Assembly (NCBI GenBank): GCA_050330975.1 | Contig: JBHJHK010000090.1 | Coordinates: forward strand, 1 to 15,189 | Direction of reading: 5' to 3' | DNA from: Candidatus Competibacterales bacterium | GTDB taxonomy: Bacteria; Pseudomonadota; Gammaproteobacteria; Competibacterales; Competibacteraceae | DNA length: 15,189 nt | In this document: positions 1-15,189 of the stretch, piece by piece | How positions within the stretch are numbered: the first letter of the stretch is position 1 | Layout of the letters: every line of letters starts with the position of its first letter | Translations under genes and position numbers: made by a program | The notes under the pieces: generated by a model | Told to the model about the DNA's origin: nothing | The model's input: only the letters and a program-made list of their open reading frames with translations | Databases searched by the model: none

Positions 1-1
1 T

Positions 2-208
2 GTCGACGCCCACTTCGCCGCCGCTGCCCTGGCAAGGCTCAACGGTCCCCAACGGCGGGTGATTTACCTCGGAGTGGTGGAGGGTTTGAGCCACCGAGAA
101 ATCGCCCAGTGCCTCCAGTTGCCCCTGGGCACTGTCAAGACCCACCTGCGGCGCGGTTTGCTGCAGATTCGCAACCTTCTTTGCAACGCGACCCAACGGC
201 GATCATGA
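2..208 (+). CDS. ECF-type (sigma-70 family) RNA polymerase sigma factor, C-terminal fragment (5' end outside window)
   Basis: Frame 2 translates to ...RVIYLGVVEGLSHREIAQCLQLPLGTVKTHLRRGLLQIRNLLCNATQRRS*, a textbook sigma-70 region 4.2 helix-turn-helix. Stop TGA 206-208 overlaps the next gene's ATG (ATGA). Confidence 0.75.
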   Translation, partial: VDAHFAAAALARLNGPQRRVIYLGVVEGLSHREIAQCLQLPLGTVKTHLRRGLLQIRNLLCNATQRRS

Positions 209-1098: not shown

Positions 1099-1122
1099 TG
1101 GGTGAAATTTTTGTGACAGTGC

Positions 1123-1150
1123 TTGTCAATAACGGCGAGCTGTTTATACT
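1123..1150 (+). promoter_or_regulatory. candidate sigma-70 promoter (TTGTCA - 16 bp - TATACT)
   Basis: -35-like TTGTCA at 1123-1128 and -10-like TATACT at 1145-1150 lie in the only AT-rich stretch (1099-1250) downstream of the anti-sigma gene. Predicted by eye only. Confidence 0.3.
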
Positions 1151-1369
1151 ACGCATCTAATTCGTGTTGAACACTTTATTGGCCATAGGTATCCGTCGTG
1201 GGTAAAGATTTGAACCAACACTATATATCTCTCCCAGCCCCCAAGGGCTGTCGTCGTGGGCGGTTGTGGCCCTCGGCTGTGAGACCTATGCCGGTCTTTG
1301 CCCAGTCCCGGGCCTTTTAGCGCCGACCTTCTCTCCAGGGGGGCGGCAGGTAGATCCCCCGTGCGATGA

Positions 1370-1413
1370 CGACATCCCCGGCGGGTCACCGACCCCCGGG
1401 GATGTCGCTTTTT
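1370..1413 (+). terminator. rho-independent terminator (12-bp GC-rich stem, 14-nt loop, CTTTTTG tail)
   Basis: cGACATCCCCGG (1370-1381) pairs perfectly with CCGGGGATGTCg (1396-1407) and is followed by CTTTTTG (1408-1414). No protein gene ends immediately upstream. Confidence 0.55.
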
Positions 1414-1612
1414 GAGGCGGCGACTGGGCTGCCTGGAATTTGCAGAATCCACCCTCTGCAAATGACCCTTTCTGGGGCAGTGGCAAAAGCCATTGCCGCC
1501 AACCGAGCAGGAAGGGGCGGAGAAAATCAGCGGTTCCGATTCTGAATATCGGACTGGCACAGGGGGGTTGCGTTCTCCTTTTGTGTACCGATCCTCGCGC
1601 CTTTTCGTGCCC

Positions 1613-1684
1613 TTGGATATAGCTCATCGGTAGAGCATTCGACTCATACTCGAAATGTGGCGGGTTCGATTCCCGTTATCCGAC
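1613..1684 (+). tRNA. tRNA with CAT anticodon (elongator Met, or Ile2 if lysidine-modified); CCA not encoded
   Basis: Manual cloverleaf: acceptor TTGGATA/TATCCGA (7 bp, one G-U), D-arm GCTC-ATCGGTA-GAGC, anticodon arm TTCGA-CTCATAC-TCGAA (U33, CAT at 34-36, A37), variable ATGTG, T-arm GCGGG-TTCGATT-CCCGT, discriminator C1684. The U1-A72 closing pair is unusual. Anticodon stem lacks the three G-C pairs of an initiator tRNA. Confidence 0.6.
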
Positions 1685-1985
1685 CATCTGAAAAATGGTA
1701 CTAACCTGTGGAGCTATTCCATCCGCTGGGCGTCGGTTAACGCCTAACCCGGGAGCCAGCTCCCGCGGTGGCCGTTGGGGGGGTGGGGCCAATGCCCCCG
1801 AGCCTCAGCGGTCGACCGCAGCGCCTGTGCCGCCTGCGCGGCGGTTGAGCGCCGGGGTCCAGCTCGAGACGAGGTGTCGTCCCGCTCCGGCAGGGGATGA
1901 TGGGCTCGCCCCGGTGCCCGACCCCGGTCCCAGCCGCCGCCCGCAGCGTCGGCGCGGGGCTGGCTCCCTCATTATTCGCTAGAGG

Positions 1986-3158
1986 ATGGCCGTCATGTTG
2001 GGCTTACAACGCTATGTTATCGCGCAGCACGAGCGCGCCTTTTTATACCGCAGTGGTCGCTTTGAGGCCGTGCTAACCCCGGGGGTCTACAGCTACCTCG
2101 ATCCCTTGGGACGGCTGACCGTCGAGCGCTTCGACCTCAACCGGCCCGCCTTCAGCGGCCACCGGTTGGAGGACTATTTTCTCCAGGAGCGGCCCGACCT
2201 GGTCGAGGCCCATTTCCAGGTGGTGGAGGTGGGGCCCGAGGCCGTGGGGCTGGTATACCACAACGAACGGTTGGTGAACTTGTTGCCGCCCCGCAGCCGT
2301 CAGCTGTTCTGGCGGGGGCCCACCCAGGTGCGGGTGGACACCACGCCTTTGGGGGGGGATCTTCGGGTGCCCAAGGACGTGGCGGTGCTGCTGCGGGACC
2401 CTCGCCATCCGTTCTTGCGCCAGGCCCTCGTCAACGCCGCCGTGTTTGCCGAGGTGGGCCAACACCAGGTGGGGCTACTCTTTGTGGACGGCGCCCTGCG
2501 GGAGACCTTGAGCCCTGGGGTATACGCCTTCTGGGGTTACCAAAACAGCGTCAAGGTGGAACTCATCGACGTGCGCCTCCAGCCCTTGGAGGTGTCGGGG
2601 CAGGAGATCCTCACCAAGGACAAGGTGTCGTTGCGGGTCAACTTGTCGGCCAGCTACCGGGTGGTGGACCCCGTGGTGGCCCGGGAGGGGGTGGCGAACT
2701 TCAAGGATTTTCTCTACCGAGAATTGCAGTTCGCCCTGCGCTGGGCGGTGGGCAACCGCACCCTAGAGGAGCTTTTGACCGACAAAGAGCGGGTGGACGC
2801 CGTGGTGAATGAAGCCGTGGTCCCCAAGGTCGCCGAGCACGGTTTGGAACTCAAGGGCGTCGGGATCAAAGATGTGATTTTGCCCGGGGAGATGCGCACC
2901 ATCTTCAACCAGGTGGTGGAGGCCGAGAAGGCGGCCCAAGCCAACGTCATCAAGCGTCGGGAGGAGACGGCGGCCACCCGTTCGCTCCTCAACACCGCCA
3001 AGTTGATGGAGGAAAACCCCTTGTTGCTGCGCCTCAAGGAGCTGGAGATGCTGGAAAAGGTCACCGACAAGGTGGAGAGCCTCACGGTGTTTGGCGGCTT
3101 GGAAGGGGTGCTGCAAGAGCTGGTGAAGATCCGCCCCAACACCGTGGCTGGGCGCTGA
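1986..3158 (+). CDS. SPFH/band-7 (stomatin/prohibitin/flotillin/HflKC-like, slipin-type) protein without N-terminal TM; N-terminal beta-module present three times
   Basis: 390-aa ORF with clean codon structure. The C-terminal 200 aa is typical SPFH (...KDKVSLRVNLSASYRVVDPVVAREGVANFKDF...KGVGIKDVILPGEMRTIFNQVVEAEKAAQANVIKRREETAATRSLLNTAKLMEENPLLLRLKELEMLEKV...). ATG 1995 (SD AGAGGA 1981-1986, 8-nt spacer) may be the real start rather than ATG 1986. Confidence 0.85.
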   Translation: MAVMLGLQRYVIAQHERAFLYRSGRFEAVLTPGVYSYLDPLGRLTVERFDLNRPAFSGHRLEDYFLQERPDLVEAHFQVVEVGPEAVGLVYHNERLVNLLPPRSRQLFWRGPTQVRVDTTPLGGDLRVPKDVAVLLRDPRHPFLRQALVNAAVFAEVGQHQVGLLFVDGALRETLSPGVYAFWGYQNSVKVELIDVRLQPLEVSGQEILTKDKVSLRVNLSASYRVVDPVVAREGVANFKDFLYRELQFALRWAVGNRTLEELLTDKERVDAVVNEAVVPKVAEHGLELKGVGIKDVILPGEMRTIFNQVVEAEKAAQANVIKRREETAATRSLLNTAKLMEENPLLLRLKELEMLEKVTDKVESLTVFGGLEGVLQELVKIRPNTVAGR

Positions 3159-3194
3159 TGGCGCTCTGAATTTTTGACAGCGGGAAATGCTTCA

Positions 3195-3227
3195 CCCGGG
3201 GCTTTAGGGATGAACCCCGGGTTTTTT
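3195..3227 (+). terminator. rho-independent terminator downstream of the SPFH gene
   Basis: CCCGGGG (3195-3201) pairs with CCCCGGG (3215-3221) around a 13-nt loop and is followed by TTTTTTGTG. It lies 37 nt after stop codon 3158. Confidence 0.55.
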
Positions 3228-3246
3228 GTGTCCGGCCCAAGGGAAC

Positions 3247-3423
3247 TCAGGCCCGGGAGGTTTCCTGGTGTGCTGTGGCGGCAAGGGTGGCTTTGATGCA
3301 TGCCGCCGTGGTGTCGATGGCCGCCAGCTTCAGAGCCAACCGCTGCCGCCGCGGCCGGGAGCAGACCAGCTTGGCCAGTAGTGCGCGGGCTCCCTGGGGG
3401 GTGGTGAGGTTGTAGGCATTCAT
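3247..3423 (-). CDS. small hypothetical protein (58 aa), divergent from the His-rich gene and with an operator copy in its upstream region
   Basis: Reverse strand reads MNAYNLTTPQGARALLAKLVCSRPRRQRLALKLAAIDTTAACIKATLAATAHQETSRA*. GGAGAG Shine-Dalgarno sits 5 nt upstream of the ATG at 3423-3421. The listed track ORF starts further upstream at a weaker start. No recognisable domain. Confidence 0.4.
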   Translation of the reverse strand: MNAYNLTTPQGARALLAKLVCSRPRRQRLALKLAAIDTTAACIKATLAATAHQETSRA

Positions 3424-3449
3424 GGCAGCTCTCCAAATTTGGGTTGGAT

Positions 3450-3482
3450 TTAGATCAATTCTAAAAATGAGAACGGTTCGCA
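3450..3482. promoter_or_regulatory. operator-like motif copy 1: TTAGAT-caa-TTCTAA-aaa-TGAGAA-cgg-TTCGCA (two adjacent 6-3-6 palindromes)
   Basis: Read directly. First palindrome matches the Irr ICE box TTTAGAA-N3-TTCTAAA. Second palindrome TGAGAA-N3-TTCKCA is loosely Fur 7-1-7-like. It lies 27 bp upstream of the - strand gene start. Confidence 0.55.
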
Positions 3483-3551
3483 AAAAATCATGGAAGCAGT
3501 ATAACCGTCTGTAACCTCAGTACAAGATCTCAGCGGGGATTGGGGGTGAAT

Positions 3552-3584
3552 TTAGAATGATTCTATTAATGAGAGTGATTTGCA
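3552..3584. promoter_or_regulatory. operator-like motif copy 2: TTAGAA-tga-TTCTAT-taa-TGAGAG-tga-TTTGCA
   Basis: Same 6-3-6-3-6-3-6 architecture as copy 1 (about 30/41 identities over the extended alignment). It lies 30 bp upstream of the His-rich gene start (3614). Confidence 0.55.
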
Positions 3585-3613
3585 TAACGCCTAGGGCTTG
3601 GGGTAGCTTTTAA

Positions 3614-4105
3614 ATGAAGCGTCTATCATCGTCCCCAACGGTCGATTCGCGGCGCCGAATCGCCTCCCTCGCCACTGATCCTTCCGAGAGTGCCCACTCA
3701 TCGGCGGAGGCCCACGGCGGCCCCCATAGCCACGGTCGGGGCCACGGTCAGGGCCACGGCCAAGACTATGACCACAGCTACAGCTACGGCTACGGCTACC
3801 TTCCCCAACCCATGGCCATGGGACCCTTGACCCGAGTCGGCGTCGCCGGGGCGTTGGTGGGGGCCAGCGCCAGTGCCGCCCGCCACATGCGCCAGGTCCA
3901 GGCCATGGAGATGTCCCCCGTGGAGGCTGCCTTACACACCGTGGGCGACGCCTTAAAGGTGGGCGTTGCCACCGCCGCTGCCAAGGTGGCCGTGGACACG
4001 GTGCGGGGTGGGCCGGCGTTGTCCACCATGGTGATGGTGGCGGCGAGTACCGCGGTGCTATTCGCCCTGGAGGGGCGCTCGACTCAGAGCAAGGGCGATG
4101 AGTAA
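3614..4105 (+). CDS. His/Gly/Tyr-rich putative metal-binding protein with C-terminal two-helix Ala/Gly/Val-rich region (MamC/Mms13-like pattern)
   Basis: 163 aa. N-terminal ...AHGGPHSHGRGHGQGHGQDYDHSYSYGYGY..., then RVGVAGALVGASASAARHMR...VEAALHTVGDALKVGVATAAAKVAVDTVRGG...MVMVAASTAVLFAL. Operator copy 2 is 30 bp upstream. Stop TAA 4103-4105 overlaps the next ATG. Confidence 0.6.
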   Translation: MKRLSSSPTVDSRRRIASLATDPSESAHSSAEAHGGPHSHGRGHGQGHGQDYDHSYSYGYGYLPQPMAMGPLTRVGVAGALVGASASAARHMRQVQAMEMSPVEAALHTVGDALKVGVATAAAKVAVDTVRGGPALSTMVMVAASTAVLFALEGRSTQSKGDE

Positions 4106-4301
4106 TTATTACTCTGGGTATTACCCGCCGCCGGGTTACGGGCCCGCGCCGAATGATCAACCCCCCCCGGGTTCGCCACCCCCCGGCGCCAACCCAGGTG
4201 CGCCACCCCCCGGCACGCCGGGGGTGCCCAACCGCACGGGGCGCTTTGTCACCGGCCTGGTGGTGGGGGTGGCCGCCGCCTACTTCCTCAGCAACGAGTA
4301 G
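4098..4301 (+). CDS. Pro/Gly/Tyr-rich small protein with C-terminal TM anchor (67 aa)
   Basis: MSNYYSGYYPPPGYGPAPNDQPPPGSPPPGANPGAPPPGTPGVPNRTGRFVTGLVVGVAAAYFLSNE. ATG 4098 overlaps the previous gene by 8 nt (translational coupling). Low complexity, so it could also be a frame artefact of the GC/CCC-rich DNA. Confidence 0.45.
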   Translation: MSNYYSGYYPPPGYGPAPNDQPPPGSPPPGANPGAPPPGTPGVPNRTGRFVTGLVVGVAAAYFLSNE

Positions 4302-4363
4302 GCGCAAAACAACCTCATCCGCACCGTGGTGAAGAAGACGAACCCGCCCCCGACGGCTTTAGC

Positions 4364-6172
4364 GTGGTGGGCCACGGTCTGTTGGCGTTGCTGACCCTGG
4401 CATTGCCCGGGAGTCTGCGGGCTTGGCTCACCTACGCCAACATCGCCCCAGTGGTATTCAAGGGGGTGGATACGCTGATTCACGAGGGCCTCAAGGTGGC
4501 GGTACTGGACGCCGTGGCCCTGAGCGTCACCGCCGGCCGGGGGGAGTTTTTCACCACCAACCTCACCAAGACCTTGCTGGTGACCGGGGAATACCTGGAA
4601 CACCACACCGCCCGGGAATCGGAGTCTTTGATCGTGGATTTGTTGGCCCCGGCGGCGGGCTCGGTGTGGGTGGAGCGCGAGGGCGAAGTGCGGTCGTGCC
4701 CCGCCCGGGAACTGGTGGTGGGGGACACGGTGTGGGTGGGGCCCGGGGAGACCATCGCCGTCGACGGCGAGATCCTCCACGGCGAAGCCCTGATCAACCA
4801 GGCCTCCATCACCGGTGAAGACGTGCCCGTGCGGCGTTTTACCGGGGAGCGGGTGCTGTCGGGCACCGTGGTGGAGGAGGGCAACGTGCGCCTTCGGGCC
4901 CTCCAGGTGGGGGAGGACACCACCACCGCCCGCATCAACCGCTTCTTGCTGGAGTCCCTCCAGAGCCGCTCCAACACCCAACAGGTGACCCAGGCCATGG
5001 CCGACCGCCGGGTGCTGATCACCCTGGGGGTGGGGAGCGGGGCCTTTGCCCTGACCCGGGATCCCCGGCGGGTGGCGGCGGTATTCCTGGTGGACTACGG
5101 CTGCGTCCTCAAGCTCTCCACCCCCATCAGCTTCAAGGGGGGCATGTACCGGGCGGCCCGCCACGGGGTGCTCCTCAAGGGGGCCAAGGCCATCGAAGAC
5201 CTGGCCACCGTGGACGCCGTGGCCTTCGACAAGACCGGTACCCTCACCCGGGGCGAACTGGACGTCACCCAGGTGATCAGCTTTGAGCCCACCCTCGACG
5301 GCGACGCCCTCCTGGCCCTGGCGGCCGCCCTGGAGGAACACGCCCGCCACCCCATCGCCAGCGCGCTAGTGGCCGCCGCCGCGGCCAGGGGCTTGGACCA
5401 TCCCCCCCACGGCGACGTGGAGCACCTGGTGGCCCGGGGGGTGCGCAGCACCTACCGCGGCCGCGGGGTATGGGTCGGCAGCCGCGCCTTTGTGGAGGGG
5501 GAGGGGGGGGTGGATTTCTCCCACCTCGACGACCGCATCCACGCCCTGGAAGCCGCCGGCCAGATGGTGTTGCACCTGGCGTGGGGCGACCGTCCCCTGG
5601 GGCTCATCGCCCTCAAAGACGAGCTGCGCCCCGAGGCCCGCCGCCTGCTGAACCGCCTGCGGCGCCAGGGCGTCCAGCGCTTGGTGTTGCTCACCGGCGA
5701 CCGCACCTCCAAGGCCGAGGCCCTGGGGGCTCGCCTGCCCCTGGACCAGGTCCACGGCGATTTGAGCCCCGAGGGCAAGGCGGCCATCATCCGCCGCCTC
5801 CAGGCCCGGGGGCGGCGGGTGGCCTTCGTCGGCGATGGGGTCAATGACGCCCCGGCCCTGACCACCGCCGACGTGGGTATCGCCATGCCCCGGGGCGCCG
5901 ATGTTGCCCGCCACATGGCCGATGTGGTCCTCACCGAGGACCATCTAGGGGGAGTCGCCGCCGCCCGCCAGGTGGCGGTGGATACCATGGGGCTGATCCA
6001 CGGCAACATTCGCTTCGCCGAGATCTTTAACTCCGGCGTCATGGCCGGTGCCGCCCTCGGCCTTTTGTCTCCCGTGGCCAGCGCCGTACTCCACAACGGC
6101 TCCACCCTGGCGGTGATGGCCCGCGCCGTGGCCAGCACCACCCGGCGGCCCTTGGAGCGCTTGGGCGGGTAG
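4364..6172 (+). CDS. atypical short P-type ATPase of the P1 (heavy-metal/KdpB-like) lineage; no N-terminal metal-binding domain; YGC in place of CPC
   Basis: Actuator TGE motif (SITGEDVPV), phosphorylation motif DKTGTLT, HP motif (EEHARHPIASALV) and hinge VGDGVNDAPAL are all present. The TM before DKTGT reads DYGCVLKLSTPISF where P1B pumps have CPCALGLATP. Only ~600 aa, ~2 TM before the A-domain. GTG 4364 is the first in-frame start after the upstream stop and has no clear SD. Confidence 0.8.
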   Translation: MVGHGLLALLTLALPGSLRAWLTYANIAPVVFKGVDTLIHEGLKVAVLDAVALSVTAGRGEFFTTNLTKTLLVTGEYLEHHTARESESLIVDLLAPAAGSVWVEREGEVRSCPARELVVGDTVWVGPGETIAVDGEILHGEALINQASITGEDVPVRRFTGERVLSGTVVEEGNVRLRALQVGEDTTTARINRFLLESLQSRSNTQQVTQAMADRRVLITLGVGSGAFALTRDPRRVAAVFLVDYGCVLKLSTPISFKGGMYRAARHGVLLKGAKAIEDLATVDAVAFDKTGTLTRGELDVTQVISFEPTLDGDALLALAAALEEHARHPIASALVAAAAARGLDHPPHGDVEHLVARGVRSTYRGRGVWVGSRAFVEGEGGVDFSHLDDRIHALEAAGQMVLHLAWGDRPLGLIALKDELRPEARRLLNRLRRQGVQRLVLLTGDRTSKAEALGARLPLDQVHGDLSPEGKAAIIRRLQARGRRVAFVGDGVNDAPALTTADVGIAMPRGADVARHMADVVLTEDHLGGVAAARQVAVDTMGLIHGNIRFAEIFNSGVMAGAALGLLSPVASAVLHNGSTLAVMARAVASTTRRPLERLGG

Positions 6173-6186
6173 AAAAAAGGTTGTTA

Positions 6187-6217
6187 TTAGAAAGCTTCTA
6201 AAAGAGAATGGTTCTCA
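6187..6217. promoter_or_regulatory. operator-like motif copy 3: TTAGAA-agc-TTCTAA-a-AGAGAA-tgg-TTCTCA
   Basis: Both palindromes are perfect or near-perfect; the middle spacer is 1 nt instead of 3. It lies 76 bp upstream of the HMA_2-like gene (6293), immediately after the ATPase stop. Confidence 0.55.
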
Positions 6218-6292
6218 ACAACTTTTGTCTTCTCGCCTTTGCGGTAGCTTCGGCGCTCTATTACCCCACTAAAACGTCCAGGAGAGTCCAGC

Positions 6293-6664
6293 ATGAAACC
6301 CTATGTTCACCACGTGCCCGGTCGTCTGCGCTTTAGTGCCCGCAGCTTGGTCCGTCGTCCCGCCGCCCTGGAGGCCCTGCGGGAAGCGTTGTACGAGTGC
6401 GAGGCCGTAGAGAGCGTACGCACCAATCCCCGGGCTGGCTCCATCACCGTGGAATACGACCCAAAAGGCACCACCCAGCGGGCGTTGCTAGATGTGATCC
6501 ACGCCGAGCAGGCGGCCATTGCCGGACCCGCACCCGCGGTGGGCGTCATCTCGCCAGCTGTCCAGCACAAGGCCGGCACGGTATTTGGCCAGGCGCTCTT
6601 TGGGGTAGTACTGGAAAAGACTCTTCAGCACTCGGTGACCTCTTTGGTGGCGGCGCTGCGCTGA
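6293..6664 (+). CDS. stand-alone HMA_2-like (cysteine-less heavy-metal-associated-like) domain protein
   Basis: MKPYVHHVPGRLRFSARSLVRRPAALEALREALYECEAVESVRTNPRAGSITVEYDP... The HHxPGRxRF...V(R/E)VNPxxGSxxxxYD pattern is the N-terminal domain found fused to some P-type ATPases. SD GGAGAG is 6 nt upstream of ATG 6293. Confidence 0.6.
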   Translation: MKPYVHHVPGRLRFSARSLVRRPAALEALREALYECEAVESVRTNPRAGSITVEYDPKGTTQRALLDVIHAEQAAIAGPAPAVGVISPAVQHKAGTVFGQALFGVVLEKTLQHSVTSLVAALR

Positions 6665-6726
6665 CGGAGCTCATCTCTTTCCAGGTCGCTATCCCGTCCC
6701 TCCGGTGCAAAAAACATCCATGAACA

Positions 6727-7788
6727 ATGTGTGATCTCTCCGCCGCCCCGCCGTCCCGCGACCCCGATTCCACCATTTCCTTTGCCCCGCGTGACAGCGC
6801 CCCGTTGGAGCCCAACGGCGGTGGCTGCGGGCGACGGCGCAAGCTTTGGGAGCTGGAGCCCCACTGCCACTGCGCGGTATTGGGCACTTGCTTGCCGGTC
6901 AAAGTGTTGCGGCAAATCTACACCCAGATCCAGGGAGAGGCCCCGGTTCACCTGAGCGATTACCAAATCCACAGCTTGTTCGTCAAAGAGGCCAGTGCTC
7001 CCTGTGCCGCCATTCGCCGGGTCCACAAGGCCCTGGAAGCCCGCTACCGGGTTGCCGTCCAGCGCTTTGCCAAGGCCAAGGATGAGGCCGAGTTGACGGC
7101 CTTGTGGGAAGTCGCGGTGGTCAACGAGGAGGAGGTGGCAGGCGCCTACTGGGCCCTCATGACCCATCCGCGCCTCAGTAAAATCCTGGCCGCCCGGGCC
7201 TTTGGCGACGTCCATATGCTCTCCCACCTGGCTGGACGTTGTCGTCAGCGCAGCGCCCGGCAACAGCAGCAGCTGGAGAGGCGTTGTCGGGAACTCCAAA
7301 GCCAGTTGGCCGAGCGCAGCACGGCGTTGTGTCGACTGCAGCGGGAGCGCCACGACGAGCGCCGGACCCTGGAAAAGGCCCAGCAAGCCCTCCGGGAGCG
7401 AGAGGCCACCATCGCTTATCTCGAGGCGCAACTGGTGGCGTTGGAGACGACGACGGAACTCGCCGACCTCCGCCGCCAGCTGGCCGCCGCCGAGCGCCGG
7501 GCCCAGTGGGCCGAGGGGCGGCTGGCCGCCCTGGCTTCTGAGGTGCCGCCCGCCGTCGAGGCCGAGCCCGAAACCATATCTCCCCCCCGGTGCCGGTCAA
7601 TCCCGAGCCCCCGGCATTGCCCCCTTGCCCCACCCCACCGAATTTGTGTGGTCGCTGTATTCTCTACGTCGGCGGTCGCCAGGGCTGCCGCGCCCGGCTC
7701 CAGCGCCTGGTGGAGGCCGCCAACGGCCGCTTTCTCTACCACGACGGCGGCCGGGAAGACGCCTCGGCCAGGCTCGGGGAGCTTCTAG
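6727..7788 (+). CDS. Cys-rich N-terminus plus long coiled-coil; probable N-terminal part of a DUF2325 protein, reading frame lost at the C7 tract 7582-7588 (nominal stop 7786-7788 is out-of-frame read-through)
   Basis: CGRRRKLWELEPHCHCAVLGTC motif, then an Ala/Arg/Glu/Gln-rich heptad region (...RQQQQLERRCRELQSQLAERSTALCRLQRERHDERRTLEKAQQALREREATIAYLEAQLVALETT...). After the poly-C tract, frame 1 turns into low-complexity junk. Start codon uncertain (no SD at 6727). Confidence 0.5.
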   Translation: MCDLSAAPPSRDPDSTISFAPRDSAPLEPNGGGCGRRRKLWELEPHCHCAVLGTCLPVKVLRQIYTQIQGEAPVHLSDYQIHSLFVKEASAPCAAIRRVHKALEARYRVAVQRFAKAKDEAELTALWEVAVVNEEEVAGAYWALMTHPRLSKILAARAFGDVHMLSHLAGRCRQRSARQQQQLERRCRELQSQLAERSTALCRLQRERHDERRTLEKAQQALREREATIAYLEAQLVALETTTELADLRRQLAAAERRAQWAEGRLAALASEVPPAVEAEPETISPPRCRSIPSPRHCPLAPPHRICVVAVFSTSAVARAAAPGSSAWWRPPTAAFSTTTAAGKTPRPGSGSF

Positions 7789-7964
7789 AGCGGGCCGATG
7801 CGGTGATTTGCCCTTTGAACTGCATCAGTCACAACGCCGTCAACGGGGTCAAGCGCCGCTGCCGCCGGGCGGCCAAGCCGGTGGTCATGGTGAAGAGCCC
7901 CAGCCTCGCCGCCCTGAACGCCGCCCTCCACCGCCTGCCCAGCGCCGAGGCGCCCCCACCGTGA
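7590..7964 (+). CDS. DUF2325 domain ORF (C-terminal part of the split gene above)
   Basis: ...PPALPPCPTPPNLCGRCILYVGGRQGCRARLQRLVEAANGRFLYHDGGREDASARLGELLERADAVICPLNCISHNAVNGVKRRCRRAAKPVVMVKSP... matches the Cys-x2-Cys...Cys-P-x-N-C-I-S-H pattern of DUF2325. GTG 7590 lies immediately 3' of the C7 tract and has no RBS of its own. Confidence 0.55.
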   Translation: MPVNPEPPALPPCPTPPNLCGRCILYVGGRQGCRARLQRLVEAANGRFLYHDGGREDASARLGELLERADAVICPLNCISHNAVNGVKRRCRRAAKPVVMVKSPSLAALNAALHRLPSAEAPPP

Positions 7965-8929
7965 CGCCCCCGCCGGGTCTCCCCCTGGGGCGCCTTTCGC
8001 CCCAGGCCAACGCCGTGGTGGTGACTTTGCGCTGCTGTGGTGGCGACGCCGGGGATACAGACCCCGCCGCCGTGGCCCTGCACCTCGCCTTGCCCCATCC
8101 CGCCGCCCGGGCCGTGGCGACGATCTCGGGGGAGGTGATGGCGCGCTGGTGGGCCCACGGCCACCGCCGGCCCCAGCTGCTCGACGTCGCCGCGCCGCGC
8201 CTGAGCGTCGACGAGGTGACCCTCTTGGGTCTGCTGGCGGCTTGGCAGGGGACGGACGAAGTGCGGGCCCACAGCCTCGCCCGGCGGCTGGTGGTGCCCG
8301 GGGGCGTGGGTGGGCTTTTGGGCGCCGCCGGACAACTGGCCGGGGTGCTGGCCCGGGCCAAGCGGCGTCTGACGGCGGAGGATACCCGTTGGCTGGCCCA
8401 CTGGGCCTCGGAGTGGTCGCACCCATCATCCGCGCCCCGGCGGGTCGCCGACCTGTCGGCGGCGGAGCGGTGGCTGTTGGCGGGGTTGCGGCTGTGGGCC
8501 CATCCCGGCCGGCGGGGCCGGTCTGCCGTGCCGCTGTTGTGGGACCACTTCGCCCCCTGGGGCACCGAGGTGATCGCCGGGGGTCTGGATCGCCTATTGG
8601 TCACCCTGGATCGCGCCCGGGCCTTGGAGCTGGGCTGCCCCGGCTGCGCCGTGGTCTCCGGCCACGAAGGCCAGCTGTTGGCGGCCATCGCCGGCGCCCA
8701 GGGGGCAGCCCATGGCCAATCGCGCGGCGAGTCCCCGGGGCCGAACGCCCTCCCCACCCCCCTGGAGGCCGACCAACGGGCCCTGGTGGCGGTGCTGTTG
8801 ACCCGCATCGGCGCCGTCCTGGCGGCGGCGGGGGTCAAGCTGCCGATCCCCGGTGGGGGGGAAGAGCGGGGGCTAACCCCCCCAACCCCGGGTTCGGACC
8901 CAGGGCTGTTTAAAACGCAAGGTATCTAA
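7961..8929 (+). CDS. hypothetical protein (322 aa), translationally coupled to the DUF2325 ORF (GTGA)
   Basis: GTG 7961 overlaps stop TGA 7962-7964. The downstream frame has a good coding pattern (...ATISGEVMARWWAHGHRRPQLLDVAAPRLSVDEVTLLGLLAAWQG...LELGCPGCAVVSGHEGQ...). The track ORF 7202..8929 is an artefactual 5' extension across the upstream gene. Confidence 0.5.
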   Translation: MTPPPGLPLGRLSPQANAVVVTLRCCGGDAGDTDPAAVALHLALPHPAARAVATISGEVMARWWAHGHRRPQLLDVAAPRLSVDEVTLLGLLAAWQGTDEVRAHSLARRLVVPGGVGGLLGAAGQLAGVLARAKRRLTAEDTRWLAHWASEWSHPSSAPRRVADLSAAERWLLAGLRLWAHPGRRGRSAVPLLWDHFAPWGTEVIAGGLDRLLVTLDRARALELGCPGCAVVSGHEGQLLAAIAGAQGAAHGQSRGESPGPNALPTPLEADQRALVAVLLTRIGAVLAAAGVKLPIPGGGEERGLTPPTPGSDPGLFKTQGI

Positions 8930-8931
8930 GT

Positions 8932-8964
8932 AAAAAATAATTAATTTAATGAGAATCGTTAGCA
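8932..8964. promoter_or_regulatory. operator-like motif copy 4: degenerate AT-rich first half plus TGAGAA-tcg-TTAGCA
   Basis: AAAAAA-taa-TTAATT-taa-TGAGAA-tcg-TTAGCA, about 70 bp upstream of the imelysin start. This is the only AT-rich island in the 8.9-9.0 kb region. Confidence 0.45.
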
Positions 8965-9035
8965 ATCTTATTTCAGATTTACCCCAGGGGTCCCCCTGCG
9001 TGAAACCCCCCTACATGAAACGAGGAGTGTGCGCT

Positions 9036-10412
9036 ATGTCGAGTGATGGTCGTGCCCTATGGCTGGGTTGTGCCCTGTGGCTGGGCGTGGGGGGCGCGTT
9101 TTGCGCCCACGGTGCAGAAGTGAGCCGCGAAGCCGTGGTGGCGCAAAACGCCGCCATCGCCTTTGCCGTGTACAGCGACAGCGCGGAGACGGCCAAGGCC
9201 CTCCAGGCCGCCGTTGACACCCTGGTGGAAGCTCCCACGGAGGCCCACCTGGCGGCCGCCCGGGAGGCGTGGCTCGCGGCCCGAGAGCCCTATGGCCAGT
9301 CGGAAGTCTACCGGTTTCGCAACGGCCCCATCGACGCCCTCACCGTCGCCGGGGAAATGATCCCCGGCGAGGGGCGCGAGGGCTATATCAATGCCTGGCC
9401 CCTGGACGAGGCGTTGATCGACTACGTGGTGGAGGTGGACGGCAACGCCCGCAACGAGGACCAACCGGTGACCTCGCTGATCGCCGACGAACGCTTTGAG
9501 ATCACCCCCGCCAACCTCAACGCCATGAACGAGTTGGGGGAAAACGAAGCCAACGTCGCCACGGGTTACCACGCCATCGAGTTTTTACTCTGGGGTCAGG
9601 ACCTCAACGGCGACCGCGCGCCCCACGACGGCCGTCGGCGGCGGGACGACACCCCGGGGCAGCGGCCGGTGACGGACTACAGGGCCGACGCCGACTGCAC
9701 CAGCGGCGCCGAGTCGTCCCCGGCGGCGATTTGCGAGCGCCGGGGCCAGTACCTCCGGGCCGCCGCCGCGTTATTGGTGGAGGACTTGACCCGCATCGCC
9801 GCCGCCTGGGACCCCGACGGTGGCGCCCACTACCAGCGCTTTACCGCCGGTGAGGACGAGGGACGCGCCTTGTTGAAGATCCTCATCGGCATGGGCAGCC
9901 TGAGCTATGGCGAGCTGGCCGGCGAGCGGATTTTGGTGGCGTTGGCCGCCAACTCCCAGGAAGACGAGCACTCCTGCTTTGCCGACAACACCCACCGGGA
10001 CATTTACCTCAACGCCCTGGGGATCCAGAACAGCTACCTCGGTCGCTACACCCGGGTGGACGGCGCCGAGGTCACGGGCCCCGGTATCGACGCCCTGCTT
10101 CGGGCCCAGGGTCACACCGAGCTCGCCGACCGGCTCAAGGCCCAGCTGGCCGCCACCATGGAGGCCGCCCAGGTGATCGTCGACAAGGCCGAACAGGGGA
10201 TGCCCTTTGACAGGCTCATCGAGCAGTACCCCGGGGAAGACAAGGACGGCCGGCCGATCCTCAACGCCAACATGGCCAATAACATCCTGGTGAACGACGT
10301 GGTGGTGGCCCTCCAGCGCCAAACCCGCACCATCGAGGACGCCATCGCCGCGCTGTTTGGCGAGGGCATAGACTACGACATCGAGGACAGCCCGGCCTTT
10401 GCCGGTGGCTAG
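9036..10412 (+). CDS. imelysin-like protein (peptidase M75 / IrpA / ICMP family; iron-regulated periplasmic protein)
   Basis: Contains the imelysin HxxE-type motif context GYHAIEFLLWGQDLNG and GYINAWPLDEALIDYV, with an N-terminal signal-like hydrophobic segment. ATG 9036 has a GAGGAG SD 8 nt upstream; ATG 9015 is also possible. Confidence 0.8.
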   Translation: MSSDGRALWLGCALWLGVGGAFCAHGAEVSREAVVAQNAAIAFAVYSDSAETAKALQAAVDTLVEAPTEAHLAAAREAWLAAREPYGQSEVYRFRNGPIDALTVAGEMIPGEGREGYINAWPLDEALIDYVVEVDGNARNEDQPVTSLIADERFEITPANLNAMNELGENEANVATGYHAIEFLLWGQDLNGDRAPHDGRRRRDDTPGQRPVTDYRADADCTSGAESSPAAICERRGQYLRAAAALLVEDLTRIAAAWDPDGGAHYQRFTAGEDEGRALLKILIGMGSLSYGELAGERILVALAANSQEDEHSCFADNTHRDIYLNALGIQNSYLGRYTRVDGAEVTGPGIDALLRAQGHTELADRLKAQLAATMEAAQVIVDKAEQGMPFDRLIEQYPGEDKDGRPILNANMANNILVNDVVVALQRQTRTIEDAIAALFGEGIDYDIEDSPAFAGG

Positions 10413-10471
10413 AAACCATAGCAACGGCCATGACGGCGGGCGCTGAAATCGCTCGCCCGAGGAGGTGTCCC

Positions 10472-12050
10472 ATGTTCCCGAGGCGTCTGTCGAGCCTGGC
10501 TGTGGCCGCGGTCATCGCCGCCCAAGTCCCAGCCGTCGAGGCCTTGGCGGTGGGAGCCGATGGCGCCCCCCCCTGGGCGTTCGACCCGTCGGAGGTCTAC
10601 CCCGGGGGCGCTGCCACCGCGGAGGTTTTCAACGAACGGGCCTATTCCCAGTTTCCCCCGGGGTTGGGTTTCATCGACCAGGGGAGTTTTAAGCGGGGCG
10701 ATCACCTGTTTCGCGGGGTACACAGGGGGTTGGGTCCTCTGTACAACGCCCGCAGTTGCCAGGGATGCCACGTCCACGACGGCCGCGGCCATCCCCCGAG
10801 CCATGGCGACGAGACCATGGTGTCGATGTTTCTGCGCCTCAGCGTCCCCGGGGTGGGGCCCCACGGCGGCCCGCGCCCCGAGCCCCGCTACGGCGACCAG
10901 CTCCAGACCTTCGCCATGGCCGGCCCCGGGGGCGAGGGCCACAGTTTTGTCGACTACGAGACGATCCAGGGTCAATACCCCGACGGCGAGCCCTTTGAAC
11001 TGCGCCGGCCGATTTACAAAGTCCGGGCCTTGACCGAGGGGCCCCTGGCGCCGACGGTGATGTTTTCCCCTCGGGTGGCGCCGCCGGTGTACGGTTTGGG
11101 CCTCATTGAAGCCATCCCCGCCGCCGCCATCGAAGCCCGGGCCGACCCCCGTGATCGCGACGGCGACGGCATCTCCGGGCGGGTCAACCGGGTGTGGGAC
11201 GCCGTGGCCGGCCGCGCCGCCGCCCCGGGTCGGTTTGGCTACAAGGCGGCCTCCCCCAGTTTGCTGCTACAGCTAGCCGGGGCCTACCGCGGGGATATGG
11301 GGGTCACCAATGAGAGCAGGCAAGTCACGAAGGGAATGGGGACGTACCTACCGCGGGGATATGGGGGTCACCAATCCCCTGTTCCCCGAGGAGTCCTGTA
11401 GCCCGCTGCAGATCACCTGTCGGGAACAAGCCCGGGAGGAACCCAGTGCCCGACCCAACGCCACCGCCCTGGAATTGGCCCTCGTGGAATTTTACAACCG
11501 CACCTTGGCGGTGCCCCGGCGCCGGGACGCCGACGACCCGGTGGTGTTGGCGGGCAAGGGCCATTTTCACCAAACGGGCTGTGTCGGCTGTCACACCCCC
11601 CGCTACGAGACCGGTCCCTTGGTGGGCTCGGCCCTGGGGGAGATCAACGGCCTGTTCCTCGACCCCGAGGCCGAGCCCCGGGAGATCGAGGTGTTGTCCC
11701 GCCAGACCATCTGGCCCTACACCGACTTGCTGCTCCACGACATGGGGGGCGAATGTCGGGCGGTGACCGAGGAGACCCCGGGGGTATGGGTCCAGCGCTG
11801 TACGGGCCTCGCCGACGGCCGCCCGGTGTTCGACGCCTCGGGGAGCGAGTGGCGCACCCCACCGCTGTGGGGCATCGGCTTGACCCAGACCGTCAATCCC
11901 CGGGCGGGATTCCTCCACGACGGCCGGGCGCGCACCGTGGAGGAGGCGATTTTGTGGCACGATGGCGAGGCCAGGGCCGCCAAAGAGGGCTTTATGGCGT
12001 TGCCCCGGGCGGCCCGGGCCGCCCTGCTGCGGTTTGTGGAGTCGTTGTAA
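10472..12050 (+). pseudogene. DUF1111 di-haem cytochrome c (di-haem peroxidase-like 'thiol oxidoreductase') paralog A, frame broken by a 64-bp insertion
   Basis: Track ORFs 10430..11401 and 11310..12050 are the two halves. Two CxxCH motifs (CQGCH, CVGCH). Removing 11312-11375 restores a continuous ...AYRGDMGVTNPLFPEESCSPLQITC... frame homologous to paralogs B and C. Start ATG 10472 has a GAGGAGG SD. Confidence 0.7.
11283..11375. repeat. perfect 29-bp direct repeat (CCTACCGCGGGGATATGGGGGTCACCAAT) flanking a 35-bp unique segment
   Basis: Copies at 11283-11311 and 11347-11375. The intervening GAGAGCAGGCAAGTCACGAAGGGAATGGGGACGTA has lower GC than its surroundings. Net insertion is 64 bp (+1 frame). 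Confidence 0.9.
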
Positions 12051-13472
12051 ATGTACCATTGGGTCGTCGCGGGACTGTTGGCTGCGGGCCTGGTGGGAGG
12101 GCCTTGGGCGTGGGGGGCGGATATCCCGGCCCTCGACCCCCGGGAGGCCTACCCCGGAGGCGAGGCCACGGCGAGGGCCACCCGGGGCCCCCTCCACTGG
12201 CGCCTGGCGCCGAATTTGGACCTGGCGGCCCAGGGCCAAGCCCTGGTGGGCCACGGCTTTTTCTCCGACCCGTGGGTGATGGCACCGGCCTCCACCACCG
12301 CCCGGGACGGCCTGGGGCCCTTGTACAACGCCCGGGCCTGTACCAGCTGCCACGCCGACGGCGGCCGGGGACGCGTTCCCCCCGGGGGTCCCTGGGTGTC
12401 TTTGGTGTTGCGCCTGCGGCCGTCCCCCCGGGGGGCCATGCCCTACGGCGACCAGCTCCAGCCCCTGGGGGTGGGACAGCCCGGGGAGGGCCACTTGCAG
12501 GTGAGCTATACCCCGCGTCCGGGTCACTACCCCGACGGCACCCCCTACACCCTCTACGTCCCGCGCTACACCGTCGTCGATACCGTCGCCGATACCGTCG
12601 CCGATACCGTCGCCGATGGGACCCCCGACTCGCCGAACCCCGGCTCGCCAAAGCGCCTCCCCGGCCCCGCCTCGGCGCGGCTGGCCCAGCCCCTCTACGG
12701 CCTGGGGCTGTTGGAGGCCATTCCCCCCGGGGTCATCGAAGCCCGAGCCGACCCCGGTGATCGCGACGGCGACGGCATCTCCGGGCGGGCGGCCCAGGTG
12801 GTGGAGCTCGCCAGCGGCGCCCGGCGGTTGGGACGCTTTGGCCACAAGGCCCGCCATCCCACGGTGCACCAGCAGGTGGCCCACGCCTTTGCCAACGACA
12901 TCGGCATCACCAACCCCCTCTACCCCGCCCAGCCCTGCGCCCCCGCCCAAGTCCGCTGCCTAGCCGGGCCCCACGGCCCCGGGCCGGGCACCGACCACGA
13001 GATCGACGCCGAGCGCCTGGCCGCCGTGACCCGCCTCACCCAGAGCCTCGGTCCGCCGCGGCGCCCGGACTGGGATGACCCCGCGGTGGTGGCGGGGCGG
13101 GCCCTGTTCCACCGGGTGGGATGCGCCACCTGCCACACCCCCCGCTTTGCCCTCGACCCCGGGACCGACCCCGCCGGCCCGGGCCAGGTGATCTGGCCCT
13201 ACAGCGACGTGTTGCTCCACGACATGGGGGACGAGCTGGCCGACGGGGTCGCCGAGGGGGACGCCTCGGGGCGGGAATGGCGCACGCCGCCCCTGTGGGG
13301 TTTGCGGGCCGTGGACCCCCGCCACGCCCGCTACCTCCACGACGCCCGCGCCCGGACCCTGGAGGAGGCGATTTTGTGGCACGGCGGCGAGGGCGCCGCC
13401 GCCCGGGAGGGCTTTCGCCGGCTGACGGCGACCCAGCGCCGGTTGCTGCTGCGGTTTTTGGCCTCCCTTTAA
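12051..13472 (+). CDS. DUF1111 di-haem cytochrome c paralog B
   Basis: CTSCH and CATCH haem-binding motifs; conserved DRDGDGISGR, GRFGHKA, EWRTPPLWG and EEAILWHGGEG blocks shared with paralogs A and C. ATG 12051 abuts the stop of A. Signal-like N-terminus. Confidence 0.8.
   Translation: MYHWVVAGLLAAGLVGGPWAWGADIPALDPREAYPGGEATARATRGPLHWRLAPNLDLAAQGQALVGHGFFSDPWVMAPASTTARDGLGPLYNARACTSCHADGGRGRVPPGGPWVSLVLRLRPSPRGAMPYGDQLQPLGVGQPGEGHLQVSYTPRPGHYPDGTPYTLYVPRYTVVDTVADTVADTVADGTPDSPNPGSPKRLPGPASARLAQPLYGLGLLEAIPPGVIEARADPGDRDGDGISGRAAQVVELASGARRLGRFGHKARHPTVHQQVAHAFANDIGITNPLYPAQPCAPAQVRCLAGPHGPGPGTDHEIDAERLAAVTRLTQSLGPPRRPDWDDPAVVAGRALFHRVGCATCHTPRFALDPGTDPAGPGQVIWPYSDVLLHDMGDELADGVAEGDASGREWRTPPLWGLRAVDPRHARYLHDARARTLEEAILWHGGEGAAAREGFRRLTATQRRLLLRFLASL
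12571..12617 (+). repeat. in-frame 12-bp tandem repeat (GATACCGTCGCC, three full units plus partials) encoding (DTVA)n
   Basis: Units at 12579-12590, 12591-12602 and 12603-12614. They encode ...YTVVDTVADTVADTVADGT... in a loop that is absent from paralogs A and C. Confidence 0.85.
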
Positions 13473-13613
13473 CACCCCTTGGGATAGACCCTTCACCATG
13501 ATCGATGGGATTGATGCTCCCTTTGGCCTCGGCACCGCCGTTGAGGCGTTGTTCTTCGCCCCGGTGTTGAACACCGTCCCCTGGGAGCTGGCCTTCAACG
13601 AGGAGGACGGCCA

Positions 13614-15002
13614 TTGAGACCGATGCCTCTTGGCGCCCTCGGGGGGATCGCCCTCCTCGGCGCCGGCCTCTGGACGACGGGGTGGACGGCGCCGGGGGCG
13701 TTGTCTCCCCCCTCGGTGGCGGTGGGGGCGGCGTTGTTCAAGGCCGACCACCCCAAGGCCGGCCCGCTCCTCAACGCCGCCGCCTGTAGCGCCTGCCACG
13801 CCGGCGGGGGTCGGGGCGACGCTCCGGCGGCCAGTGGTCCCTTGCCGGCGGCGGTGGTGTTGCGCTTGAGTGCCCCCGCCCGCCGCCGCACCGGAGAACC
13901 GGCCCCCGATGTCCGCTACGGCGACCAGCTCCAACCCCTATCCCACCACCCCCACCACCCCGGGCTGGGACTGGGGGAGGGACGCATCGACGTGGTGTAC
14001 CGCCCCGTGGAGGGTCGTTATGCAGACGGCACCCCCTACACCCTGCGGGCTCCGGTGTACCGGGTGCGCGGTCTGGCCCACGGCCCCCTGGGGGAGGGGG
14101 TGACCTTTTCGGTGCGCAGCGCCCCGGCGGTGGTGGGGCTAGGGGCCCTCCAGGCCATTCCGGCCACGGAACTCGCCGCCCGCGCCGACCCCTTTGACGC
14201 CGACGGCGACGGCATCTCCGGGCGGATCAACTGGGTGTGGGACATCTTAGAAGCTCGCCACGCCCCGGGGCGCTTTGGCCACAAGGGGGAGATGCCCTCG
14301 TTGGTCCAGCAGATCGCCGGGGCCCTGTGGAGCGACATGGGGGTCACCAGTCCTCTGTTTCCCTGGCCGGTGTGCACCGCCGTCCAGGGGGATTGTTTGG
14401 CCCGGGTCGATTTCGCCGTGCTCGACGCCGACGGCGGCCAGTTGGCGGCCCTAGAGGCCTTTCACCTCGCCCTGCCGCCCCCCGCCCGGCGCGGCTATCC
14501 CCAAGACCCCGAGGTGCGCCGGGGGGCCGAGTTGTTCGAGGGGTTGAATTGCAGTACCTGCCACACGCCTCGCCAGCGGGTGGGTCCCATCCGCCCGTCG
14601 CCCCTGGCCAGTGGCTTGCAGCGGACGGGGCGCGGCGCCGTACCCCGCCCCCCCGGGGGGATAATTTGGCCCTACACCGACCTATTGCTCCACGATATGG
14701 GGGGGGACTGCGACCCCGTGGTCCAAGAGGGGGACGCCTGGGTCCAGCGCTGCACCGGGCTCGCCGACGGTCGGGTGGTATTCGACGCCTCGGGCCGAGA
14801 ATGGCGCACCCCGCCCCTGTGGGGGCTGGGGTGGGCCAAGGCCCTCAATCCCGAGATGGGCTACCTCCACGACGGCCGCGCCCGGACTTTGGAAGAAGCG
14901 ATCCTGTGGCACGGCGGCGAGGGCACCGCGGCGAGGGAGGGATTCCGCCAGCTGACGGCGGCCCAGCGCCGGGCGCTGCTGCGGTTTTTGGCTTCCCTTT
15001 GA
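13614..15002 (+). CDS. DUF1111 di-haem cytochrome c paralog C
   Basis: CSACH and CSTCH motifs; same conserved blocks as A and B. TTG 13614 is preceded by GAGGAGGA 13601-13608 at 5-nt spacing; ATG 13623 is the alternative. Stop 15000-15002. Confidence 0.8.
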   Translation: MRPMPLGALGGIALLGAGLWTTGWTAPGALSPPSVAVGAALFKADHPKAGPLLNAAACSACHAGGGRGDAPAASGPLPAAVVLRLSAPARRRTGEPAPDVRYGDQLQPLSHHPHHPGLGLGEGRIDVVYRPVEGRYADGTPYTLRAPVYRVRGLAHGPLGEGVTFSVRSAPAVVGLGALQAIPATELAARADPFDADGDGISGRINWVWDILEARHAPGRFGHKGEMPSLVQQIAGALWSDMGVTSPLFPWPVCTAVQGDCLARVDFAVLDADGGQLAALEAFHLALPPPARRGYPQDPEVRRGAELFEGLNCSTCHTPRQRVGPIRPSPLASGLQRTGRGAVPRPPGGIIWPYTDLLLHDMGGDCDPVVQEGDAWVQRCTGLADGRVVFDASGREWRTPPLWGLGWAKALNPEMGYLHDGRARTLEEAILWHGGEGTAAREGFRQLTAAQRRALLRFLASL

Positions 15003-15121
15003 GCCCGTGGAGACCGCGCCCTACCGTCGAGTCGTCCGTCGGGGAATGCTGCTTGTACGTCCCATAGCCGCTATCCTATGGGGCCATTGTTCGCCCCCAA
15101 AAGAGCCCTAGAGCGCACCCC

Positions 15122-15189
15122 ATGGCCGACACCGACCACGCCTACAAATTGCTCTTTTCCCATCGAGAGGCCGTCATCGATTTGGTGAA
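15122..15189 (+). CDS. 5' end of an Rpn/YhgA-like (PD-(D/E)XK, transposase_31 family) putative transposase/nuclease; continues beyond the window
   Basis: MADTDHAYKLLFSHREAVIDLV... resembles the N-terminal H-D-x-x-(F/Y)-K-x-L-F-S-x-P-E motif of Rpn-family proteins. Only 22 codons are visible. Confidence 0.3.
   Translation, partial: MADTDHAYKLLFSHREAVIDLV

Follow-up and report, generated by a model that had tools for sequence, protein, structure and literature searches.

The DNA analysed here, called the window throughout, is a stretch of 15,189 nucleotides of Candidatus Competibacterales contig JBHJHK010000090.1 (GenBank assembly GCA_050330975.1, positions 1 to 15,189 of the forward strand), and its proteins are deposited as 'MAG: Candidatus Competibacterales bacterium' (MAG, metagenome-assembled genome). 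It contains a putative ferrosome (fez)-like gene cluster, followed by imelysin and di-haem oxidoreductase (DHOR) genes, and in front of their four transcription units lie short palindromes of two kinds. These are named here the A box (the first palindrome, TTAGAA-N3-TTCTAA, similar to the iron control element, ICE, of the regulator Irr) and the B box (the second palindrome, TGAGAA-N3-TTCKCA). An earlier note on this DNA had described four composite sites (S1-S4), each with both palindromes. Read directly from the sequence, S1 (3450-3482), S2 (3552-3584) and S3 (6187-6217) are indeed such composites, in which the A box is followed after 1-3 bp (AAA in S1, TAA in S2 and A in S3, i.e. gaps of 3, 3 and 1 bp) by the B box; the variants seen are TTAGAW-N3-TTCTAW for the A box and WGAGAR-N3-TTNKCA for the B box. 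S4 (8932-8964), which reads AAAAAATAATTAATT-TAA-TGAGAATCGTTAGCA, differs from the description in having a B box only: its upstream 15-mer agrees with TTAGAA-N3-TTCTAA at 5/12 positions, and 8932-8949 is an AT-rich stretch, not an A box. The seven boxes, all without strand, are:

3450..3464, A box of S1, TTAGATCAATTCTAA, a palindrome of the ICE/PerR-box type, with the ATG of the 58-aa minus-strand gene 27 bp away
3468..3482, B box of S1, TGAGAACGGTTCGCA, a predicted Fur box of the Fur-alpha/TGAGAA type
3552..3566, A box of S2, TTAGAATGATTCTAT
3570..3584, B box of S2, TGAGAGTGATTTGCA, ending 30 bp before the ATG at 3614
6187..6201, A box of S3, TTAGAAAGCTTCTAA, matching TTAGAA-N3-TTCTAA at 12/12 positions
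6203..6217, B box of S3, AGAGAATGGTTCTCA, 1 bp past the A box and 76 bp before the ATG at 6293
8950..8964, B box of S4, TGAGAATCGTTAGCA, a lone predicted Fur box 72 bp before the imelysin ATG

Every box is intergenic, and the distances between the sites and the start codons (27, 30, 76 and 72 bp) had been given correctly before. S1 and S2 are direct repeats (not mirrored) inside the 190-bp region between two divergent genes. A search of the 15,189 bp with TKAGAANNNTTCKMA, allowing at most 2 mismatches, returned exactly these seven boxes (13 strand-hits versus 1.1 expected), and 13 strand-hits were reached in 0/200 shuffles. The A consensus, TTAGAANNNTTCTAA, gave 3 hits at the same tolerance versus 0.01 expected. 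The enrichment of the boxes in the window is real. No further A or B boxes were found in 21 kb of the same contig, and in a second assembly of the organism the sites have the same sequence. The boxes sit in AT-rich troughs, the surrounding sequence having 65-70% GC. An Rfam search gave no match at the sites, and a reading of the palindromes as RNA hairpins or terminators was rejected on account of their 6-bp AT-rich stems, the lack of a T-tract after them and their position upstream of genes.

The genes behind the sites are:

3247..3423, minus strand, 58-aa hypothetical gene with a GGAGAG ribosome-binding site and no family match, divergent from the fez-like cluster (S1 unit)
3614..4105, plus strand, protein of 163 aa, rich in His and Gly, with a GxxxG-containing hydrophobic segment and weak similarity to MamC (FezA-like)
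4098..4301, plus strand, 67-aa hypothetical protein, forming the S2 unit with the 163-aa protein and the ATPase
4364..6172, plus strand, 602-aa P1B-type ATPase without an N-terminal HMA_2 domain, motifs DYGCV and HNGST, P1B-6/FezB-like
6293..6664, plus strand, 123-aa HMA_2 protein with the R-rich motif HHVPGRLRF, FezC-like, first gene of the S3 unit
6727..7964, plus strand, DUF2325 gene, interrupted here through the loss of 1 bp near 7581, whereas two other assemblies have it intact (412 aa)
7961..8929, plus strand, 322-aa hypothetical protein, last gene of the S3 unit (L001 11670-12638)
9036..10412, plus strand, imelysin (Peptidase_M75) gene, first gene of the S4 unit
10430..15002, plus strand, three DHOR (DUF1111) genes of the S4 unit

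The identity of the B box was approached with a weight matrix built from 27 Fur-binding sites of Caulobacter crescentus (Table 3 of PMC2724300; 11 validated by electrophoretic mobility shift assay and 3 by footprinting), the training sites of which span 15.7-28.7 bits. In the window-wide scan, the top four positions were the B boxes (24.8 bits for S1, 23.4 for S4, 21.6 for S3 and 18.1 for S2), while the maximum in 100-bp local shuffles had a mean of 11.7 bits and a 95th percentile of 15.8. Since the four B boxes rank first with this matrix and their scores lie inside the training range, the B box is predicted to be a Fur box of the 'Fur-alpha'/TGAGAA type, and with 18-25 bits it is closer to Fur than the loose relation suggested by the earlier note. 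The B box of S4 has 3 mismatches to TGATAATNATTATCA. The Caulobacter Fur-alpha box (da Silva Neto et al. 2009, PMC2724300) shares the 15-bp core TGMGAA-N3-TTCTCA with the B boxes of the window, which score like validated sites with its matrix. It too is found in promoters of iron genes, in many cases in the region that separates divergent genes, and a promoter may have more than one. The two systems differ in the host, which is gammaproteobacterial here, and in the expected effect: the positions in the window, where the sites are predicted from sequence, suggest repression, whereas Caulobacter sites upstream of the -35 element activate.

The A boxes of S1, S2 and S3 match the ICE of Bradyrhizobium Irr, TTTAGAA-N3-TTCTAAA (Rodionov et al. 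2006, PMC1698941), with 1, 2 and 1 mismatches of 14, respectively, and the naming of the first palindrome as an ICE thus stands for these three sites but not for S4. Positions 2 and 14 are T/A in 3/3 A boxes and G/C in 4/4 B boxes, around the common core AGAA-N3-TTC. Fuangthong and Helmann are said to have reported in 2003 that the same position distinguishes Fur from PerR boxes in B. subtilis. The TG-N11-CA pattern is common to Fur, RirA and related boxes (PMC1698941) and is absent from ICE. With the Caulobacter Fur matrix, the A boxes of S1, S3 and S2 score 17.9, 13.4 and 13.1 bits. Two adjacent palindromic boxes per promoter are also a feature of the dual control by ICE and RirA box described in rhizobia (PMC1698941), and the second box of the window fits the TGA-N9-TCA pattern; here, however, the partner looks like a Fur box and not like that of the Rrf2-type RirA, the two boxes are tightly spaced (1-3 bp) and their order does not vary. 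The statement that such a dual arrangement is undescribed is doubtful in concept, as both ICE plus RirA-box control and tandem Fur sites have been published (PMC1698941, PMC2724300).

The genes behind S1-S3 (for a MamC-like protein, a P1B-6-like ATPase, an HMA_2 protein and a DUF2325 protein) are predicted to constitute a ferrosome (fez)-like cluster. MamC-like, HMA_2, hemP, ferritin and DUF2325 genes accompany the ATPase in other gammaproteobacterial loci. The 163-aa protein, which contains GVAGALVGA, is assigned to PF26373 (precomputed) and reaches 41 bits with the NCBIfam MamC model, under the 100-bit cut-off. The best homologues of the ATPase (52-54% identity) are about 700 aa long and have an N-terminal HMA_2 domain, HxxPGRxRxR and the P1B-6 signatures DYSCA and HNGTT; signatures of this type define FezB of ferrosomes (bioRxiv 10.1101/2020.01.10.902569). 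In the window, the motif of the fourth transmembrane segment is DYGCV (S to G, A to V), compared with DYSCA in homologues P0118, P0107 and P0023 and DYACA in P0001, and HNGST is present. The HMA_2 domain that the homologues carry as ATPase N-terminus is its own downstream gene here, and in the separate protein (Pfam E=1.7e-9), HHVPGRLRFSAR corresponds to what the full-length ATPases have at their N-termini. The putative cluster shares with the fez clusters described by Grant et al. (bioRxiv 10.1101/2020.01.10.902569) a P1B-6-like ATPase, a protein with HMA domain and R-rich motif and a small GxxxG membrane protein, and differs from them in DYGCV instead of D[Y/F]SCA, in the split-off HMA_2 and in the DUF2325 partner.

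Gammaproteobacterial loci with FezB-like ATPases (Candidatus Competibacter, L036 867-13446; L040 and L071-L073) recurrently contain one or two MamC-like genes, HMA_2, DUF2325, hemP, ferritin and feoAB, and in L040 and L071-L073 the ATPase gene has MamC-like genes next to it. DUF2325 and hemP appear to be partners of ferrosome-type clusters that had not been recognised as such. Two operons of Ca. Competibacter with homologues of the window genes carry canonical Fur boxes, namely ferritin-feoAB-HMA_2-x-x-x-ATPase with TGATAATGATTCTCA in front and DUF2325-x-hemP preceded by TTGACA-tctaaa-TGATAATGATTATCA, which bears out the view that the genes linked by the sites are iron-related. Four other gammaproteobacterial fez-like loci showed no convincing box. 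The FUR gene beside the Ca. Competibacter ferritin-feo-fez operon was set aside as not informative on the A box; it adjoins cobW, has two CxxC pairs, reaches no NCBIfam cut-off and is probably Zur-like. In Clostridioides difficile, according to work cited in PMC13463818 and PMC13307979, ferrosomes form on iron limitation and depend on Fur status, and analogous control may operate here. The proposal that three of the units are new members of an iron stimulon consequently needs amendment: they are iron-related, but the ferrosome-like cluster had gone unrecognised, and iron/Fur control of such clusters is known.

The composite was further sought in other genomes with the pattern TTAGAW-N3-TTCTAW-N1-3-WGAGAR-N3-TTNNCA, which was fitted to S1-S3. 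In a genome collection that does not include this MAG, it gave 33 loci, none of them from the Competibacterales, where about 3 matches are expected under uniform composition (an estimate); a metagenome collection gave 30 more. Thirteen Methanobrevibacter matches (L010 5600-5632 and 12 alike) fall within an 82-aa conserved coding sequence of the opposite strand and were discarded as coincidental. At 22 alphaproteobacterial loci (18 distinct sequences; Parvibaculum, Reyranella, Rhizomicrobium, Robiginitomaculum, Rhodobiaceae, Rhodospirillaceae and others), the A-then-B composite stands right after an irr-type Fur-family gene and upstream of a rubrerythrin gene. The regulators pass the NCBIfam IrrA equivalog cut-off in 4/4 sampled cases, and the HHH/HQH motif is present in the 12 extracted from the genome-collection loci. 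In the direction of rubrerythrin, the order is the irr stop, TGCGAACCnTTCTCA, 2-3 bp, TTAGAAnnnTTCTAA, 4-5 bp and TTGAC, and the B box of S1 fits the TGAGAA-nGG-TTCGCA form of these loci. The pairing of an ICE with a Fur box, first noticed in the window, is thus a real, recurring architecture, with the same two boxes in the same order and at a closely similar gap. The composite there adjoins the regulator gene, whereas in the window it is found 27-106 bp from ferrosome-like start codons, in either orientation. The minimal irr-rubrerythrin regulon is already known (PMC1698941), and no description of the Fur box adjoining the ICE was found in the searchable literature.

A two-protein reading of the composite is natural at the irr-rubrerythrin loci. 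The pair sits there (L003, L005, L011, L015, L018, L033-L035 and others) upstream of a TTGAC -35-like element, and because this is where Caulobacter Fur activates (PMC2724300), the arrangement suggests, by analogy, that Fur may activate and Irr repress rubrerythrin.

Other contexts of the composite are more varied. In Roseovarius it stands in front of a Dps-like gene. In Pelagibius and two high-GC metagenome contigs (L017, L043, L063) it is flanked by genes for a DUF2061 membrane protein and an HD-domain protein, a locus at which the same regulators may have one more conserved target. In low-GC marine contigs it precedes genes for an iron-type binding protein and a porin, some of these contigs having longer arrays that mix TTAGAAT and TGAGAAT units. 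The scan pattern captures both Irr-linked and plainly Fur-type contexts. Within the Gammaproteobacteria, a MAG of the Woeseiaceae has the composite 17 bp before a rubrerythrin start. In Woeseia oceani (CP016268, L075 ~9951-9965), a TTGACA-17-TAAAGT promoter is directly followed by the perfect palindrome TTAGACTTAGTCTAA in front of a rubrerythrin-CCG-DUF3501 operon, with no B box; TTAGACTTAGTCTAA is predicted to be an ICE-like operator variant in a cultured gammaproteobacterium. Because of these two cases, ICE-like operators appear to exist in Gammaproteobacteria.

The explanation that we put first, at a confidence just short of an even chance, is that the four sites are operators for Fur-family regulators, with Fur at the B box and a second paralogue, of the Irr/PerR clade, at the A box. 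A second regulator at A is suggested because the T/A versus G/C difference is consistent, S3 has a perfect ICE core and the A boxes of S2 and S3 have low Fur scores; it is further suggested because the A-then-B order is fixed, the composite is linked to irr in Alphaproteobacteria and A boxes occur only at storage-type units. In the window, the split is between the uptake cluster (S4, B only) and the three ferrosome-cluster promoters (A and B). Under this explanation, Fe2+-Fur would bind B, which would overlap the core promoters or follow closely behind them, and would repress, when iron is sufficient, four units: the 58-aa gene, the MamC-like/ATPase unit, the HMA_2/DUF2325 unit and the imelysin/DHOR unit. 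Repression is the expected direction because, with ordinary 5' untranslated regions, the box positions would cover the -10/+1 region. On iron limitation, the ferrosome-like storage and the imelysin/DHOR uptake clusters would be derepressed together, like ferrosomes elsewhere. The A box, 1-3 bp from B, would be a second dimer site of Irr/PerR-box specificity (T/A, not G/C, at the outer +/-6 positions), read by an Irr/PerR-clade Fur-family paralogue encoded elsewhere in the genome, which would add a second signal (haem or peroxide status) at the storage genes only. A wider form of this reading, that an Irr/PerR-specific paralogue outside Alphaproteobacteria and Fur read a conserved, fixed-order two-box operator, is doubtful, and we regard it as equally doubtful that this operator (ICE-type box, 1-3 bp, Fur box) is common to the irr-rubrerythrin loci, the Woeseiaceae rubrerythrin locus and the present cluster.

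Several points weigh against a second regulator, and an alternative is that Fur alone binds both boxes. In this alternative, which we hold to be quite possible without being probable, the boxes would be adjacent Fur dimer sites, a strong B and a weaker A, the extra occupancy tightening repression of the ferrosome-like genes while S4 has a single site. It is common for a promoter to have several Fur sites; Caulobacter genes have 2-4 of them, with two footprints at CC2194 (PMC2724300). The A box of S1, at 17.9 bits, is within the Fur training range. The main Fur box of Riemerella anatipestifer, ATTTAGAATTATTCTAAAT, is an ICE-like palindrome identical to the A-box/ICE consensus and regulates TonB receptors and an imelysin gene (PMC5609570), although that organism belongs to the Bacteroidota and its box is not the companion of a TGAGAA-type box. 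In Firmicutes (Aliicoccus, Bacillus alkalicola, Paenibacillus), the same composite stands before FecCD and ABC-ATPase iron-transport genes, where Fur alone would be expected, and also before cation-efflux genes, and the mixed arrays of the low-GC marine contigs point in the same direction. Because of the Riemerella box and the composite at Fur-type targets in Firmicutes, the ICE-like palindrome is not specific to Irr, and the A box is no proof of Irr.

The genomic setting adds to these points. The contig is gammaproteobacterial, not a mis-binned alphaproteobacterial piece, because SerA, encoded by this contig, finds its best named matches among Gammaproteobacteria (Competibacteraceae, Cellvibrionales, Xanthomonadales and Plasticicumulans, 66-75% identity), while Irr has been reported from Alphaproteobacteria only (PMC1698941). 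The 24.6 kb of contig available gave no Fur-family gene, either to tblastn searches of the window and L001 with Fur of E. coli and PerR of B. subtilis or in gene calls on the further 6 kb. The scan pattern fixed the discriminating bases, so that the A/B distinction in other genomes is partly a matter of ascertainment. No close orthologous locus of the cluster was found in the collections reached (best ATPase 52-54%); relatives found via SerA (L080, L082, L083) are without the cluster. Scans of the three intergenic regions for the sigma-70 consensus detected no promoter and no terminator, and because no consensus promoter was detected, the predicted operator-promoter overlap is based on distances only. 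A candidate promoter read by eye at S3 (TTGTTA at 6181-6186, a 17-bp spacer and GAGAAT at 6204-6209) matches the consensus at 8/12 positions, below the scan threshold; the A box would fill its spacer and the B box would supply its -10 element.

What speaks against Fur alone is that all three A boxes have T/A where proteobacterial Fur boxes keep G/C, the perfect ICE core of S3 being odd for Fur, and that the A boxes of S2 and S3, at 13 bits, score under every Caulobacter training site. Moreover, A is always followed by B, the order being never mixed, and the alphaproteobacterial composite is tied to irr. We keep the Fur-plus-paralogue explanation in first place, at the strength given above.

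A special case of it, in which a genuine haem-responsive Irr like that of Bradyrhizobium binds together with Fur, is improbable. The A boxes do fit the ICE consensus, their order and spacing relative to B agree with the composite downstream of genuine irr genes, and the iron-storage targets are like those of minimal Irr regulons. The host, however, is a gammaproteobacterium, a taxon outside the known range of Irr; no irr gene is present in the available 24.6 kb of contig, S4 is without the element, and the palindrome could also be recognised by Fur or by a PerR-like protein. Hence the assignment of the first palindrome to Irr was overstated.

Still less probable, and in our estimation very unlikely, is that the boxes belong to an unrelated regulator or are non-functional relics in a horizontally acquired island by tRNA-Met. 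This tRNA gene is situated 1.7 kb upstream of S1, and the cluster has no close relatives, its best ATPase match being 54% identical. On the other hand, seven well-preserved, AT-rich, promoter-proximal boxes in a genome of 65-70% GC argue for purifying selection, the matrix match to Fur sites is strong and a search of the window for an att-like repeat of the tRNA-Met 3' end gave nothing. The tRNA-Met (CAT; 1613-1685, plus strand) lies in an approximately 900-bp gene-free stretch between an anti-sigma-like gene and a Band_7 gene, and the site could be an island insertion point.

Some further observations concern the sequence itself. A perfect palindrome, TGACAGTGCTTGTCA (TGACA-N5-TGTCA), is present at 1114-1128, just past the stop of the anti-sigma-like gene, and is unrelated to the A and B boxes. 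The window is without one C near 7581 (L001 11290; L002 2080), which divides DUF2325 into open reading frames (ORFs) 6727-7788 and 7590-7964; the split is probably an assembly error or a strain variant. In both assemblies, the first DHOR gene is broken into two ORFs that overlap (10430-11401 and 11310-12050); the break is either real, as a frameshift or pseudogene, or an error common to the two. The assemblies also differ by a 12-bp indel at window position 12577 (L001 16287-16298), in a tandem GACACCGTCGCC repeat (DTVADTVADTVA) of the second DHOR paralogue, and by five more single-base differences across 7641-13986.

Taken as a whole, the regulon is plausible but fairly ordinary, as its boxes belong to known operator classes. 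There is modest novelty in three points: a gammaproteobacterium carries an ICE-type box, this box is coupled to a predicted Fur box in front of ferrosome-like genes, and the fixed-order pair recurs at the irr-rubrerythrin loci. If Fur alone binds both boxes, the result would amount to routine Fur-regulon annotation. If the regulon is confirmed, it would show, in a form open to test, how a ferrosome-like cluster is regulated in an uncultured gammaproteobacterium of the wastewater/sediment type, and would connect DUF2325 as well as the hypothetical 58-aa, 67-aa and 322-aa proteins with iron homeostasis. The tight, fixed-order pair of an ICE-type and a Fur box recurs across several alphaproteobacterial orders and some Gammaproteobacteria, and would give iron-storage and oxidative-stress genes a simple control logic with two inputs; no description of it was found in the searchable literature. 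Should the paralogue explanation be true, ferrosome-type storage would be gated by two signals (iron together with haem or an oxidant), and not by Fur alone.

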